From: Candidatus Woesearchaeota archaeon
GTDB taxonomy: Archaea > Nanobdellota > Nanobdellia > Woesearchaeales > SM23-78
NCBI GenBank assembly: GCA_016935175.1
Contig: JAFGRK010000011.1
Coordinates: 1-58,271 of the forward strand
DNA: 58,271 nt
Direction of reading: 5' to 3'
Positions within the stretch are counted from its first letter, which is position 1. Every line of letters starts with the position of its first letter. Shown here piece after piece: positions 9,001-15,000 of this stretch. Made by a program: the position numbers.

Positions 9001-12000
9001 AAGACTTGTTTGTTATCCAGATGACAGGAACTGGGAATGGCTCATGGGAAATATGCGACGTTGTCAATGTGTCTGCTGATGACTATGTCAACTGCTCTAA
9101 TAACCTCACCTACACCTACCAAGCAACAGGGGCTCAGGTTGTAGTTATGCCTCAATGGCTTGACCTCACAATAAAGGACGGAGGAGTGCTGACTGCTCCT
9201 GCCTGGAACGGCACTGCCGGAGGAGTTATTGCTTTCAGGGCAAGAGGGCTTATCAACATCACCAGCACAGGAAAAATCAATGCCACAGGCATAGGCTTCA
9301 GTGCAGGAACAGGCCCTGGGGCTGGAGGAGGCTCTGGAGGAGGAGGAGGAGCAGCAGGTAATACTCCTACTGGTGGATGCGGAGGAGGAGGAGGAGGCGG
9401 AGGAGGAGGCCAAGGAGGCTCTTATGCTTCTGTTGCTTCAACCACTGATGGAGGAGGAGGCGGAGGAGGAGGAGCAAGTGCAGGAATGGTGTCTGGTGGT
9501 GATTATGCTGATGGGGGTGAAGGAGGTAATGGCACTGATGCTTCTAACGGAGGAGATGGTTCTGCAGTTGGTTTTATGCAGTCAGCAGGAGGAGCAGGAG
9601 GAGGAGGTGCTAAGGATGGTATTGGGGGAGCAGGAGGAATTCATGGCGGCTCAGGTGGAGATGGATCACCAGGCGGTAACAGCACTGGGGGGACAATGGG
9701 AGGAGCAGGAGGCTATGGAACTAATAATACTGGCGCTGGAGCAGGAGGAAACGGAGGCAGCCTGGGCTCATCACATGGCTTAGCTGATTTATCACTTATT
9801 TTCTTAGGAAGCGGAGGAGGAGATGGAGGCCAGGGAGGGACTGGGGGCTCTAGTACTGTAGGAACAGGAGGAACTGCAGGTAGCAAAGGAAGTGGTGGAA
9901 AAGGAGGGGGAATAATTTATTTTTCTGGAATCACTATCAATAATTCTGGTGTTGTTGTTGCAGACGGTCAAGATGGAGATGAAGGAGAGGAAGGAAGTTA
10001 TGGTCTATCTGCAGGAGGAGGCGGAGGGGGAGGGGGAGGAGGAGGAGGAGGAAGCGGAGGAAGCATATACATAGTGGGGAATTATATAAGCTTAGGATAC
10101 AACATTACTAATTCTAGCGGAGGAAGAGGAGGCACATTTGGAAAAGGAGGCAATGGAGGACTAAGCAATGGAAATTATGGTCGAGGAGGAAATTTCTCAG
10201 GAGAAGGAGGTATTGGTGCATATACCGATGTTATGTCTGTTAATGGAGGTGGAGGTGGGGCAGGAGGCAATGGAAGCGCAGGAGGAACAGGGAGGATACA
10301 TGTAGACTTCTATTATGAATTCAGCGGCCAGACTTATCCTGAGGCAGACATATCTTATGTAGGGAATCCTTGCGAGTGCCCTGGCTTGAATATTGATTGG
10401 GATATGAACATGACTTTGAATTGCACTGTCAACAACGACTGCGACATAGGGACAGGGCATCTTAATTTCACAGACACAGGGTACTTCATATGCAATGCAA
10501 CAATTAATCTCACTGAGATGCAGAAGCCTTATCCTGACCAGATAGTCTATGTGGGCAGAAATTGCATCTTAAACTTCAGATAACTGAAAGAGTTGTTTAT
10601 TTTGTTGGCCTGCCAACAATTAAATATCTTTCATTACCTGGATGAATCCCTGTTATAGTGAAATATTTCTCAAATTGAGGAATTGTTTTTTCTATTGGCT
10701 GCCCCCAGGCAGAGTTAGATGATATTAGCAAGCCAGAAGGGGACAGGGTCCTTTGCGTTTCCTTTAGTATTGCATCTTGGCAATCACTAACATAACCAAG
10801 CCATTTTTCCTTTGGCAAAACTTTGAAACGCACATATTCCTTAACAGGGACGCAACAGCCGTATAGCCCCAGCATCAACGCCAAATCAATGGATGAATCT
10901 GGGAAAGGCTGTTTTCTCACATCAGCCTTGACAAAGATAGAATTTGATGGCAAGCTAAGCTTGGAAAAGAAATCATGGGCTTCATTGCTTAGGTCCATCT
11001 CTATCAAGAAATCCACAAGTTCAGACTTGTTGCCAGATGGGTTCCTGGCTCCACAGCCCAAATCAAGCACTAATCCTTTCCCGTGCCTTCTCAATAAGTC
11101 TTCAAATATGACCACATGTGACTCTTCAACCAATCCGTATAAATCGCTAATTACTCTATTGTTAATCATGCCATCAGCAAGAACAACGAGCTAATTATAA
11201 AATTTTCTAAAGTTCAGTGCGGGATATCAAAAAAATCTAGACTTATAATAGCCTATTGGTCTTATAACAGTCTATTTTTTCTACTTTGATTTTATGCTCC
11301 TCACTTTCTGCTCTTCCTTGGTCTTGAACAAAAGCCAGTTGTTTGGCCCTGCCTTCTCAAACCTTAGCAGGGTGTATCTTCCTTTGAGCTTTTTGCCGTG
11401 CAAAATAAAGACGAATTTCTTGTCTTCTTTTCCTTCCTGCTTTCTTGCCTCGAGCTCATATGTGCCTTTGTCCCATATCTCTACCTTGCCTGCGCCGTAG
11501 CTGCCTTCCTCTATCTCCCCTTCAAAATTTGCATAAGAAAGGTCGTGGTCATCCACCATTATAGCTAAGCGTTTCACATCTGGCTCAGTGCTCGGCTCCT
11601 TGGGCACCACCCAGCTTTTCAGGACTCGGTCCATCTCTAGGCGAAAATCATAGTGCAGGTTTCTAGCTGAGTGCTTCTGCACAACAAAAATAAGAGGCTT
11701 AACTTTATTTTCTTTATAACCGACCTTATTTTTCGCGCTCATCTTTACTCAGGTATAGTGAGAAATTGAATATCTTAAGCACTTTTATCACATCTTCCTT
11801 TTCAACCTTGTCCTTGAGCCTCATCCTGGCTGCTGCCCTTGCCATGTTCATGATGCCTATCACCATCCTGGGGCTGATCTCCACCAGGAACTGGCCCTCG
11901 TCCTTCTTGACATCAGAAACAAATCCTTGTATCAGTGGGCTTAGGCTCTTGTCAAACTCAACATTCCTTTTCAATGCATATGCAACGTATTCCTTTATGA

Positions 12001-15000
12001 AATGCTTGTCCTTCTCTGTAACTGCCTTCCTCTCGCCTTTGATTATGTTGTCTGTTATCTTTAGGAATTCCTCTGTGCTTGGCTTCCTTATGAGGAAGAC
12101 CAAGTGGAACCTGCTTAGCAGGGCAGAATCAAAAGGGACTTGCCTTTTTAGCACTTCTATTGTCCTGCCTACAAACCTCTCCCCTTCAGGGTTGGCTGTT
12201 GCAAAGACATTCACATTAGCCTCTAGCTTAAGATGGGTGTCTGCCTTGTCATAAGTGATGAAACCTTTTTCCATGGCATTGAGCAATCCTGCCCTGTCAG
12301 TGCTCTTCAATAGGTTGAGCTCATCAATGCAGGCAATGCCGTTGTTAGCCAAGGGAAGGATGCCTTTCACTACTTCCTTGCCTATAACCACTACAGTCAA
12401 TCCTGCCTTGCTTGCGCCGCTTCCAAGGCCAAAGCTGCTTATGGGCGCAAGATCTACTATGCTGTGAAGGATGTCTGTCTTACCAGTCGCAGGGTCGCCT
12501 AGGAGCAGGACATGGGATTTTTCCTTTGCAAAGAGCTGGATCAGCCCTGCCAGCTTGACCTCTTCCAGGCCTATTATATTAGGAGCAATCATCGGCAGTA
12601 TCTTTTCTTCTGCATGCGCTGAGAACTCAGCAAAGACTTTTTCCTTGCCAAGCAGCTCAATCCTGGTATTAAGCTCCTCAACCTTGTTCTTATAGAAGCT
12701 GTCTATAACATTGCAAGCCACTATCAAGTATTTTGAGCCTGGCAGCAAGCCATGGCTGGTGCCGAAGTCAGCCTCCGCAAACCTTGCCTTGTGGCTCTTG
12801 AGCATTGCCTCTAGCTCCTTGACTTGCTCTGGCTGCAATGCTTCCTTTACCATCTCAACCCTTGCCTTGTCCTCCTTGCTCAGAGGCAAGAGAGAAGTCC
12901 AGAAGCTTCCTACCTTTCTCTTAGGGGATGCCGAAAGTTGAGGCTCTTCTTCTTTCTTCTTTTGAGCTGTTTTCCTCTTAGCTGTTGCCATGGTTAAATG
13001 ATAATGTGGATTAATATAAATAATTAACTATAAATTTAATATCGCCAAATCATCTGAAATATTCATCTGAAGTATTATCATGTTACCTTCTGCTTCAAAA
13101 AATATTTAAACTCCGCTGGCAAAGTTATTGTATTAGCATAACATCGGTATAAAAAGGGGTGTTTATCTTGGTGCTCAAAAAATCTGATAAAGACTTGGCT
13201 TCAGAGCTTAGCGACCTTAAGAAAAGGGCTGATAAGCTGGAAAAGGAGCTTGAGAGGCTTGAGAAGCTGGAAAAAGGGCTTGCACAGCAAGAGATTGTCC
13301 TGGCAAAGAAGATCACTGACATGAACAAGATAGAGGAAAGCATGAGCGATGTTGTTTCTAGAAAGGAATTTGATGAACTGAAAAAAGAGCTTAAAAAGCT
13401 TGAAAGCCATGAGGTGCTGTTAGCTGAGAACTCTAAGTTCATAAGGGAGATTGCTAATGAGGTTGGGATGATTAAAGAAACCGATATCTCCGGCAAGGGA
13501 CAGCCTATTAGCAGCAGCCATAAGCCAAGGCACAGTGAAATAGCTGATGTAAAGAAAGAGCTGCACCACAGGCTAAGCGACATCGAGCACCAGAACAAGC
13601 TCATAATGAGCTACCTTAAGCGTGTTGATGAAGTTCTCCAGATGAAGCTAGGGATTTGAGCAGGCCAAAACACAGGATTAATTCATCCCTGACCTAAGCA
13701 TAAACTTTATATAAAGCTGTTTTTCTCTATTAACCTTGAAATGCTTGAGCAGAATTATGACGCACAAAAAGTTGAGGCTAAGTGGCAGAAGTACTGGGAA
13801 GAGCAGGGAATATACAAGTTTGACCAGAATAGCAAAAATCCTATATATAGTGTAGATACTCCTCCGCCTACTGTGTCTGGCAAGATGCACATAGGGCACG
13901 CTTTCTCATTTTCGCAGCAGGACTTTATTGTTAGGTATAAGCGCATGTGCGGATTCAATATCTTCTGCCCTTTTGGCACTGATGACAACGGCTTGGCAAC
14001 TGAGAGGCTTGTTGAGAAGCTGAAAAAAGTGAGGGCTAGGGATATGGATAGGAAAGAATTTGCCAAGCTCTGCCTTGACACCCTGCAAAACGAGCTTAGG
14101 CCCAGCTACATTGCTGACTGGAAAAGGATTGGCATGAGCTGTGACTGGAATATATATTATACCACTATTGATGAGCACTGCCAGCGCATATCTCAGAGGG
14201 AGTTCATCAACTTATATAAGATGGGAAGGGCTTACAGGAAGGATGCCCCTAGCATGTGGTGCCCTGAGTGCAACACAGGCATATCCCAGGTTGAGTGCGT
14301 TGACAAGGAGATAGCTTCCTCCTTCAATGACATTGTGTTTAAAGTAAAAGCTGGAAAAAGTGAAAGCAGCAAAGACGGGAGCAAGAGCAAAGAGCAGGAA
14401 AAAGAACTAATTATTGCAACAACCAGGCCTGAGCTATTGCCTGCTTGCGTTGCTGTGTTCTACCATCCAAGCGATGCAAGGTACTGGGAGCTCAAAGGCA
14501 AGAAAGCCAAGGTCCCGCTATTTGACTTTGAAGTGCCTATTCTTGAGGATGAGCGAGCAGACCCTGAGAAGGGGACTGGCATTGTGATGTGCTGCACATT
14601 TGGTGACCAGACAGACATGGAATGGCAAAAGGCCCATAACCTACCTATAAAGCAAGCTATAAGCTCAAGCGGCAAATTGACTGAGATTGCAGGCAAATAT
14701 GCTGGAGAGGACATCAAGTCTGCAAGGAAAAGAATAATTGAAGATATGAAAGCCAAGGGCCTGCTCAAGTCCCAAATCCCTATCAAGCACGCTGTTAATG
14801 TGCATGAGCGCTGCGGAACAGAAGTAGAGTTCATCAAGGCAAAGCAATGGTTCATAAGATACCTTGACTTAAAGGATGACATGCTCAAATGGGGTAACCA
14901 GCTTAAGTGGCATCCTGCCTATATGAAGAACCGCTACGACAACTGGGTAAAAGGCTTGCAATGGGACTGGCTTATATCCAGGCAAAGATACTTCGGGGTG

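Follow-up and report, generated by a model that had tools for sequence, protein, structure and literature searches.

What a second, shortened MCM protein contributes to an archaeal cell is the question raised by a gene in contig JAFGRK010000011.1 of a Candidatus Woesearchaeota archaeon (assembly GCA_016935175.1, here G000), the whole 58,271-nucleotide stretch of which was analysed as the window. In the taught view, archaea have one cellular MCM and extra copies come mostly from mobile elements. The gene (positions 11726 to 12991, minus strand) is an open reading frame for a 421-aa protein (P0001), here named mini-MCM. A preliminary description had taken it for a genuine MCM AAA+ protein, and this was borne out by Pfam matches to MCM (PF00493; E 1.3e-35, residues 127–307) and MCM_lid (PF17855; E 5e-9), both above the cut-off, and by an AF2 model (mean pLDDT 87.7) whose closest structural matches are MCM subunits (Foldseek E 3e-24). 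The model aligned with MacMCM (8q67) over 291 residues with a VIA Z of 31.4 and an rmsd of 2.6, and the MCM fold ranked above RavA (Z 19.6), BchI (17.7) and ComM (16.3).

The MCM P-loop domain (residues 126–307; 12071 to 12616, minus strand) carries Walker A K171, Walker B D223-E224, sensor-1 N267 and the arginine finger R294, and the MCM AAA lid (residues 331–412; 11756 to 12001, minus strand) carries the sensor-2 residue R375. The DNA-contact residues S194 and K249 correspond to T369 and the ps1-beta residue K430 of SsoMCM; the Sso numbers are those in the available text of PMC6629641 and were placed on mini-MCM by alignment and spacing. The protein ends about 10 residues past the lid and has no winged helix. 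The search of P0001 against Pfam gave no match to the MCM N-terminal, OB or WH families, and the profile alignment with canonical MCM covers only residues 118–413. Thus, the N-tier and the winged helix are gone, as had been proposed, and a domain of ~100 aa is found instead.

This family-specific N-domain (residues 27–125; 12617 to 12913, minus strand) stands where the helical/zinc/OB tier would be. It is preceded by a charged tail (residues 1–26; 12914 to 12991, minus strand) that is modelled with pLDDT <50 and is missing from the alignment in most relatives outside the genus. The domain comprises a short amphipathic helix, two helices, a beta-hairpin and a long helix running into the AAA+ core, and its conserved residues are K65, K/R68, N108 and F123. 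It was not matched by the canonical MCM profile (hhalign probability 0.2%) or by PHROGs, residues 26–130 had no usable match in the atlas, and P0001 has no CxxC motif and only PADLOC matches at E≥0.003. When folded alone (pLDDT 86), the domain returned nothing from Foldseek at E≤0.001 and a best VIA Z of 4.3, a null result that is evidence neither for a new fold nor for a difference.

Within the core, the external hairpin is deleted (12 residues), the helix-2 insert (h2i) is 6 residues shorter than in canonical MCM, and the sensor-3 residues H418 and Q423 are replaced by Y/L (position 237) and mostly K (position 242), respectively. The tail after the lid has ~3–16 residues in most copies versus ~91 in canonical MCM. 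P0001 scored 148 bits with the replicative MCM model NF040949 of NCBIfam (cut-off 940) and 17 bits with YifB models (cut-offs 362–530). Many mini-MCM copies are labelled 'replicative helicase Mcm' by automatic annotation, and such mislabelled copies could confuse marker-gene sets.

The family, described before as patchy outside the genus, is in fact present in 93 of the 301 genomes of the order Woesearchaeales (43 of 120 families), always as a single copy, and in 12/42 genomes of a second phylum. In the genus, the earlier count of 13 matches among 14 other genomes was reproduced, but the short forms (56–83% identity) number 13 rather than 12, and a second MCM match was found in 12 genomes, in 11 of them in frames of 673–696 aa. 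That mini-MCM is kept besides canonical MCM was confirmed in 51 of the 52 carriers tested, the exception being a genome (G029) that is 85% complete. Canonical MCM was not found in the contigs of G000, nor was Cdc6 or any of the canonical-MCM flankers of relatives (TBP, RPA2-like, aIF2-beta and DP2 C-terminal queries), and because all of these are missing, the cdc6-mcm block is most likely unassembled. A heteromer of active and dead short paralogs was ruled out, as only a single short copy per carrier was found at E≤1e-64. Also rejected was a split MCM made of mini-MCM and a stand-alone WH gene as an obligate pair. The WH gene, listed earlier among the neighbours, occurs with mini-MCM in 37 and alone in 29 of the 66 WH-positive genomes, with 57 genomes having only mini-MCM and 178 neither (301 genomes counted by hand, a fragment in G234 scored as a carrier); the enrichment follows one clade.

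Comparison of the mini-MCM and canonical MCM trees gave a Mantel rho of 0.56 (permutation maximum 0.30), with 12 of 18 strong splits shared and one conflicting, at a mini-MCM rate ~2.1 times that of canonical MCM. These data are consistent with mostly vertical descent, as the preliminary description had it. The slot is vacant at 9 of 30 non-carrier loci, and from this it also follows that mini-MCM is dispensable; the copies in the second phylum probably trace to one inter-phylum transfer. In a FastTree phylogeny (257 columns), the mini-MCM clade fell outside the full-length MCMs and joined another four short MCM-like proteins, on branches that were long and had poor support.

This tree position, the suggested transfer and short MCM-domain clusters in viruses (atlas rows of 300–441 aa) could be taken to mean that the gene is what remains of an MCM from a virus or plasmid and does nothing for the cell, extra archaeal MCMs being usually of mobile-element origin (PMC3914693, available text). 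That reading is highly improbable. The single copy sits among housekeeping genes, its tree tracks that of the host MCM and it is under purifying selection; moreover, viruses (in a scan of 30 of 64 parts) and plasmids gave only weak matches to the core (best ~30% identity or lower), and the three inspected were full-length MCMs. Hence, for the present state of the gene this explanation is largely refuted, in line with the earlier view that mini-MCM is not a mobile-element copy, while the gene could still have a remote viral origin.

Downstream, a stand-alone LigD 3'-phosphoesterase gene (11281 to 11742, minus strand) overlaps the mini-MCM stop by 17 nt and is likely co-transcribed with it, an arrangement in which the two genes are near each other in four genus genomes only. 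On the other side lie a divergent coiled-coil gene (13159 to 13659, plus strand) and then valS (13741–16218), with synteny at genus level only. A scan for sigma-70 type promoters gave matches at chance level. The recurring neighbours, in sets of 68 and 86 loci, are housekeeping genes; within ~5 kb, HerA is found in 14 and Mre11 in 11 of 46 families. Since the flanking block remains in non-carriers, where HerA stands at the edge of one of 30 short loci, this proximity may be block synteny.

The oapA gene lies directly downstream of mini-MCM and co-oriented with it in 14 of 86 genomes (gaps of 36–313 nt), and the preliminary description had proposed a functional tie to 'origin-associated' oapABC. 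However, oapA is present in 38 of 44 non-carriers and lies on another contig in G000, so the link is positional. An origin link was ruled out as well: Cdc6 was 3–15 kb or so from canonical MCM in all four genomes where it was found, whereas the distance from oapA to Cdc6 is ~53 and ~108 kb in two genomes that are single contigs, and mini-MCM shows no linkage to the cdc6-mcm block. OapA has been reassigned as the vesicle GTPase ArvA and drives vesicle formation in Haloferax, as stated in the available text of PMC10927574. The protein might then work with OapABC/ArvABC at the membrane, for example in pumping nucleic acid into vesicles or in chromosome tethering, with the N-terminal helix, which is basic and amphipathic (mean moment 0.49, charge +1.6; 79 copies), as its anchor. 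We consider this very improbable in view of the oapA distribution and the vacant slots; the proposed anchor does not stand out either, the moment of the helix being no higher than those of seven other mini-MCM helices (0.31–0.64).

Of 86 genome copies, 74, among them P0001, have all five ATPase motifs intact (Walker A, Walker B, sensor-1, arginine finger and sensor-2). The catalytic residues, earlier given as invariant in 45 homologs, are therefore not so across the family: two of the remaining 12 copies are cut short and 10 are degenerate. All intact copies retain G192, S/T194 and K249 and a helix-2 insert of uniform length, which has an aromatic residue in only 19 of the 74. The invariance of both DNA-phosphate contacts in these copies argues against a MoxR/BchI-like protein-remodelling ATPase acting off DNA, as does the lack of any VWA family in the scans of recurring neighbour clusters (27 and 15 proteins). 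Such a role would accord with the weak chelatase-family matches in Pfam/NCBIfam, the place of RavA and BchI next after the MCM folds, the loss of every accessory DNA-binding domain and a Walker B context resembling that of BchI, but it is decidedly improbable.

The ten degenerate copies are full-length, and N108 is kept in all 12 non-intact copies, whereas K249 survives in just two of the ten; thus, DNA grip and ATPase appear to be coupled. At least four independent losses are indicated (six changes on the host tree, four of them forced), and a single clade of degenerate copies was rejected (p-AU 4.5e-9). Purifying selection on the dead copies is weak (pN 0.42–0.53 versus pS 0.68–0.78; five pairs). 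Judging from these residues, motor activity has likely been lost several times while the gene was retained, and the motor is therefore not the sole reason for keeping it. Joint decay of ATPase and grip in at least four lineages, with fold and N-domain kept, points to an additional non-catalytic role.

One such role would be that of a regulatory or accessory subunit that uses its AAA+ interface to enter or cap the replicative MCM ring, so that the N-tier has a gap, and that aids assembly, loading or unloading, with catalysis optional. The near-constant presence of canonical MCM in carriers and the repeated origin of full-length pseudo-ATPases with a preserved N-domain speak for it, and dead MCM-like regulators (MCM-BP and MCMDC2) are known from eukaryotes. 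We nevertheless regard it as unlikely: motifs on both interface faces (at Walker B +2/+3 and in the sensor-3 helix) are unlike those of canonical MCM, which would fit self-specific assembly better, the gene is missing from roughly two thirds of the order, and it is unlinked to the cdc6-mcm block. Eukaryotic MCM evolution also included a step from MCM to pseudo-ATPase. In a broader and rather unlikely version, DPANN archaea would have undergone a second, independent diversification of MCM subunits, yielding a tier-less subunit with a new N-domain that either joins the replicative ring or gates it, or else makes up the smallest natural MCM ring, and that became a pseudo-ATPase regulator on at least four occasions.

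The reading that we tentatively prefer is that of a DNA translocase ring resembling ComM, needing no loader and serving repair or recombination. Mini-MCM would be a single-copy, dispensable paralog pared to its motor and likely assembling into a ring without a loader; the single tier suggested earlier would be in keeping with the conserved trans-acting residues. The ring would likely translocate on DNA as ComM does, rather than unwind replication forks, and the dead copies with their kept fold and N-domain suggest that a non-catalytic role was added. In SsoMCM, K430 and T369 hold ssDNA, unwinding is abolished in the K430A mutant and strand displacement does not require the h2i aromatic (PMC6629641, available text). 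The H2i of ComM is half-size and lacks the aromatic, and the protein encircles dsDNA (PMC11612176, in part). A repair role is favoured by the HerA/Mre11 proximity and the overlapping LigD phosphoesterase gene in G000. On the other hand, the sensor-3 residues are changed, and the isolated Sso core formed only dimers in solution and bound DNA with low affinity (PMC1807962, available text). In MthMCM, deletion of h2i uncoupled ATPase from unwinding, which was abolished (PMC4619765, in part), so the shortened insert of mini-MCM could mean no productive motion. A ComM-style role in transformation is unsupported, as DprA queries in five carriers gave nothing over the Pfam cut-off.

The same isolated Sso core has ATPase and helicase activity and melts blunt and 5'-tailed duplexes, the N-half adding processivity (PMC1807962), and BcMCM, with a foreign N-terminus, is still a 3'-5' helicase (PMC2715239, available text). 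Together with the grip residues invariant among intact copies, this could suggest a weakly processive 3'-5' helicase serving as a spare or in restart, standing in at stalled forks. We find this quite improbable. The repeated pseudo-ATPase conversion and the two hairpins lost or shortened argue against a simple spare helicase, as does the MthMCM deletion, and replacement of the canonical gene was not seen, with the incomplete G029 as the sole exception.

A description of the family was not found in the literature searched, and the term 'MCM' is absent from the main text, as available, of a 2026 preprint covering 208 complete genomes of Nanobdellota. Mini-MCM represents a chromosomal paralog family of long standing that is carried by ~30% of a large DPANN order and also occurs in a second phylum. 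As the natural counterpart of the laboratory 'core only' MCM, it makes it possible to test directly what the N-tier, the external hairpin and the helix-2 insert contribute to a helicase versus a duplex translocase. Family f80, with three predicted-active and four dead copies, supplies matched pairs for how an MCM turns into a pseudo-ATPase.

The eukaryotic paralogs MCM8-9, MCM-BP and MCMDC2 have turned to recombination or regulation, some being catalytically dead; unlike mini-MCM, they are two-tiered. In archaea, M. kandleri MCM2 is inactive. With canonical archaeal MCM (MacMCM 8q67 and SsoMCM), mini-MCM shares the AAA+ core, lid, ATPase motifs, ps1-beta lysine and h2i Ser/Thr, at ~34% identity to the core of the host MCM. 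It lacks the helical/zinc/OB tier, WH, external hairpin, full h2i and sensor-3 His/Gln, and differs in its own N-domain, its dispensability and its faster evolution. The engineered SsoMCM core (PMC1807962) has the same domain boundaries and is active, end-loading and poorly processive, whereas mini-MCM is natural and conserved, with altered hairpins and its own N-domain. A non-essential second MCM is also found in T. kodakarensis (MCM1/2; PMC3239210), Methanococcales (PMC3914693, available text) and M. kandleri (MCM2; 3f8t). Those extra copies have a kept or extended N-tier and are mostly linked to mobile elements (PMC3914693), while mini-MCM is a truncated form that occurs once per genome at a fixed position and follows its hosts through 43 families. 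The Bacillus cereus prophage protein BcMCM (PMC2715239) likewise joins an MCM AAA+ core to an unrelated N-terminus and is an active helicase, but it is carried by a phage and its N-terminus binds zinc and ssDNA, whereas mini-MCM is chromosomal with an N-domain of ~100 aa. ComM/YifB (PMC11612176) shares the MCM-like AAA+ fold, a basic residue in ps1-beta and a short H2i in which no aromatic is conserved; its Lon-like domain and embedded zinc finger are absent from mini-MCM (Pfam/NCBIfam), which is MCM-derived. By analogy, ComM is the closest model for how mini-MCM may act.

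The mini-MCM gene (window 11726–12991, minus strand) encodes P0001, a protein of 421 aa in which a Pfam scan recognised the MCM family at residues 127–307 (E 1.3e-35) and MCM_lid (E 5e-9), with no MCM N-terminal or winged-helix (WH) family above match level. The full-length archaeal MCM model scored it at 148 bits, as compared with a cut-off of 940 bits. The structures closest to its AF2 model (mean pLDDT 87.7) are MCM subunits, with VIA Z 31.4 and rmsd 2.6 over 291 residues for MacMCM 8q67, as compared with Z values of 19.6, 17.7, 16.3 and 15.9 for RavA, BchI, ComM and BrxL, respectively. 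Against a profile of 23 relatives' canonical MCMs, only residues 118–413 were alignable (34% identity), with gaps of 12 residues at the external hairpin and 6 in the helix-2 insert (h2i); standard anatomy follows the accessible text of PMC13049513. P0001 ends ~10 residues past the lid, where canonical MCM has ~91 further residues. Residues 27–125, no part of which aligned with the canonical profile, are confidently predicted to form a small domain. Upstream, a 167-nt AT-rich gap (12992–13158) separates divergent genes and contains a candidate TATA-like hexamer ~29 nt 5' of the ATG, which would fit a leaderless archaeal transcript.

In Sso MCM, T369 and K430 grip ssDNA and H418 and Q423 form sensor-3 (PMC6629641, accessible part); by alignment and spacing, these correspond to S194, K249, L237 and K242 of P0001. 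Walker A, Walker B, sensor-1, arginine finger and sensor-2 are retained in 74 of 86 genome copies, where K249 and S/T194 are invariant and h2i length is constant. At the sensor-3 sites of the intact copies, H418 is replaced by Y/L/F and Q423 mostly by K, and only 19 of the 74 have an aromatic residue anywhere in the short h2i. Ten copies are degenerate at Walker, sensor and finger residues, K249 persisting in two of these, and two more are merely cut short. The invariant trans-acting residues imply that mini-MCM would act as an oligomer, and the grip residues, invariant and decaying together with the ATPase, imply that it would move on DNA in an ATP-coupled manner. That it remodels proteins is considered quite improbable.

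The isolated Sso core works as a helicase that loads at DNA ends and has low processivity (PMC1807962). In MthMCM, h2i deletion abolishes unwinding, yet dsDNA is then bound more tightly and stimulates the ATPase ~12-fold more (PMC4619765). ComM, whose H2i is of half size and has no aromatic, surrounds duplex DNA and drives branch migration (PMC11612176). Together with the residue conservation, these data tentatively suggest a motor for repair or recombination that loads itself and either translocates on duplex DNA or migrates branches, all functional steps of which we infer. That mini-MCM is instead a spare helicase appears improbable.

The short form is nearly genus-wide (13 of 14 other genus genomes). 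Outside the genus, where the preliminary description had called it patchy, it is more widespread than that suggested: a profile (60 members, active and degenerate) matched 95 of 301 order genomes, each at least 85% complete, of which two have canonical-length proteins only and 93 exactly one short copy, a lower bound since strongly decayed copies could score below the cut-off. By hand count, carriers are spread over 43 of the 120 families; in addition, G234 has a short-form fragment. A phylum-wide draw of 301 genomes gave 49 with the short form, only G471 lying outside the order, and record titles of 58 species-collection loci are mostly Woesearchaeota/Nanoarchaeota, some evidently mislabelled. 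The short form also occurs in 12 of 42 genomes from the phylum of G317, whose canonical MCMs branch outside those of the order; as judged from the trees, this second phylum probably acquired it by one transfer. The tallies take in three unpublished genomes (G002, G194, G310), on which no claim rests.

Canonical MCM is present in 51 of 52 carriers sampled across families, sometimes split by inteins or contig ends; the sole carrier where none was found, G029, is 85% complete. Regulation of the canonical ring by mini-MCM is regarded as rather unlikely. The short form is missing from several single-contig genomes (G033, G041, G093) and is therefore dispensable. In the source genome G000 (completeness 93.6%), no MCM other than P0001 was found, nor any match to Cdc6 or to TBP, RPA2-like, aIF2-beta and DP2 C-terminal queries (names recognised from sequence, the RPA2-like OB fold also by domain scan), the four genes that border canonical MCM in relatives; one missing block best explains these absences.

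After 50% clustering, only 39 of 75 short representatives pass the motif test. The 36 that fail include a few truncated or misaligned sequences, and their number is inflated by dead copies (those with degenerate ATPase motifs), which evolve fast. A dead copy is in every case the sole short copy of its genome. Mapped onto the host MCM tree, the dead copies require six changes of state, four forced by strong branches, and a single dead clade was rejected (p-AU 4.5e-9). Decay in place is favoured, since dead copies of families f29 and f63 have kept the ancestral position and f76 has neighbours in common with active f36; f80 holds three active and four dead copies. Five dead pairs (25–36% identity) have open frames and pN of 0.42–0.53 below pS of 0.68–0.78 (near saturation), and on these substitution patterns dead copies are judged to be under relaxed constraint, not pseudogenes. 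In G160 the short form (L075:5992–6984) stops at a TAG after ~330 aa and its lid part lies in the following frame piece; the copy may be broken, or the sequence may contain an error.

Patristic distances of short form and canonical MCM correlate over 65 genomes with both (rho 0.56; best of 999 permutations 0.30), although G105 and G319 represent one genome and kin are not independent. Twelve of 18 strong splits of the short-form tree are common to the canonical tree and one conflicts; without the support filter 22 of 61 are common, deep nodes being weak. The short form evolves ~2.1 times as fast. Across 86 loci from 46 families, a block recurs in which divergent Mre11, HerA, PIN-like and UPF0175-like genes (within ~5 kb of mini-MCM in 11, 14, 15 and 16 families, respectively) are followed by mini-MCM, oapA, oapB, oapC and an Obg-like GTPase gene (11, 6, 8 and 8). 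The PIN label rests on motif and PADLOC match. At 9 of 30 non-carrier oapA loci (30 of 38 matches), the PIN/UPF0175 pair abuts oapA, leaving no space for mini-MCM. Tree congruence and the fixed slot, full or empty, fit an old gene lost many times and support the mostly vertical keeping proposed earlier. Its separation from mobile-element copies is likewise supported: viral and plasmid collections (viral scan, 30 of 64 parts) gave only weak matches to the core, three inspected being MCMs of 705–777 aa, and a mobile remnant is very unlikely. The UPF0175-like (~187 aa) and PIN-like (~234 aa; PADLOC PDC-S70, E 3e-8) pair, longer than usual toxin-antitoxin genes, points towards HerA/Mre11 and shows order-wide synteny (L050:4596–5852 region, L184, L266, nine non-carrier loci).

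The proposed placement beside oapABC holds in part: in 14 of 86 genomes mini-MCM immediately precedes oapA, but oapA is present in 38 of 44 non-carriers and, in G000, on a separate contig (C27). Cdc6 lies within ~3–15 kb of canonical MCM in all four genomes where found, ~53 kb (G093) and ~108 kb (G033) from oapA, and ~95 kb from the short gene in G103. OapA/ArvA drives vesicle formation in Haloferax (PMC10927574, accessible part); an Oap or membrane motor is very unlikely.

A stand-alone WH-like gene (G000 C32:106640–106909; 90 aa) is a real gene, mostly adjoining and convergent with polB (G000 C32; L140–L159). Its product resembles the MCM C-terminal winged helix, has a conserved acidic N-terminal helix, and may regulate MCM or a polymerase as a free protein. 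Of 301 order genomes, 66 have the gene, and 37 of these carry mini-MCM and 29 lack it; it is not an obligate partner of mini-MCM.

In the window, a stand-alone LigD 3'-phosphoesterase gene (11281–11742), near mini-MCM in four genus genomes, overlaps its stop by 17 nt in G000, and a methyltransferase gene (10597–11169) follows. An 888-aa glycine-rich, likely surface protein (7917–10583) has no Pfam match; an acidic alternative-frame ORF (9301–9783) overlaps its Gly-rich part. A run of secreted-looking genes (16386–19508), those scanned lacking Pfam matches, includes tandem paralogs (16781–17404 and 17483–18145) and is syntenic with valS in the genus.

Other MCMs were also encountered. Four short MCM-like proteins of 300–432 aa (P0192, P0229, P0205, P0212) have different N-termini, three likewise lacking the external hairpin and having a short h2i; they may belong to a wider tier-less MCM clade. 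Carrier G068 has a third, divergent full-length MCM (C1:38525–40138, L289; 33% identity, 710-aa frame), possibly from a mobile element. Canonical MCMs at L102 and L279–L288 (frames of 1101–1714 aa) are interrupted once or twice by large inserts, probably inteins, which fall at three recurrent positions and were seen in 11 of the genomes examined.

No description of the mini-MCM family was found in the open literature or one preprint's text, whose supplementary orthology table could list it. Mini-MCM is an MCM-superfamily ATPase without the defining features of replicative MCM, ComM or mobile-element copies. As far as the accessible text goes, BcMCM (PMC2715239) is a precedent for joining a foreign N-terminus to an MCM core, and the extra MCMs of PMC3239210 and PMC3914693 are, like mini-MCM, non-essential; all differ from it in context and build.
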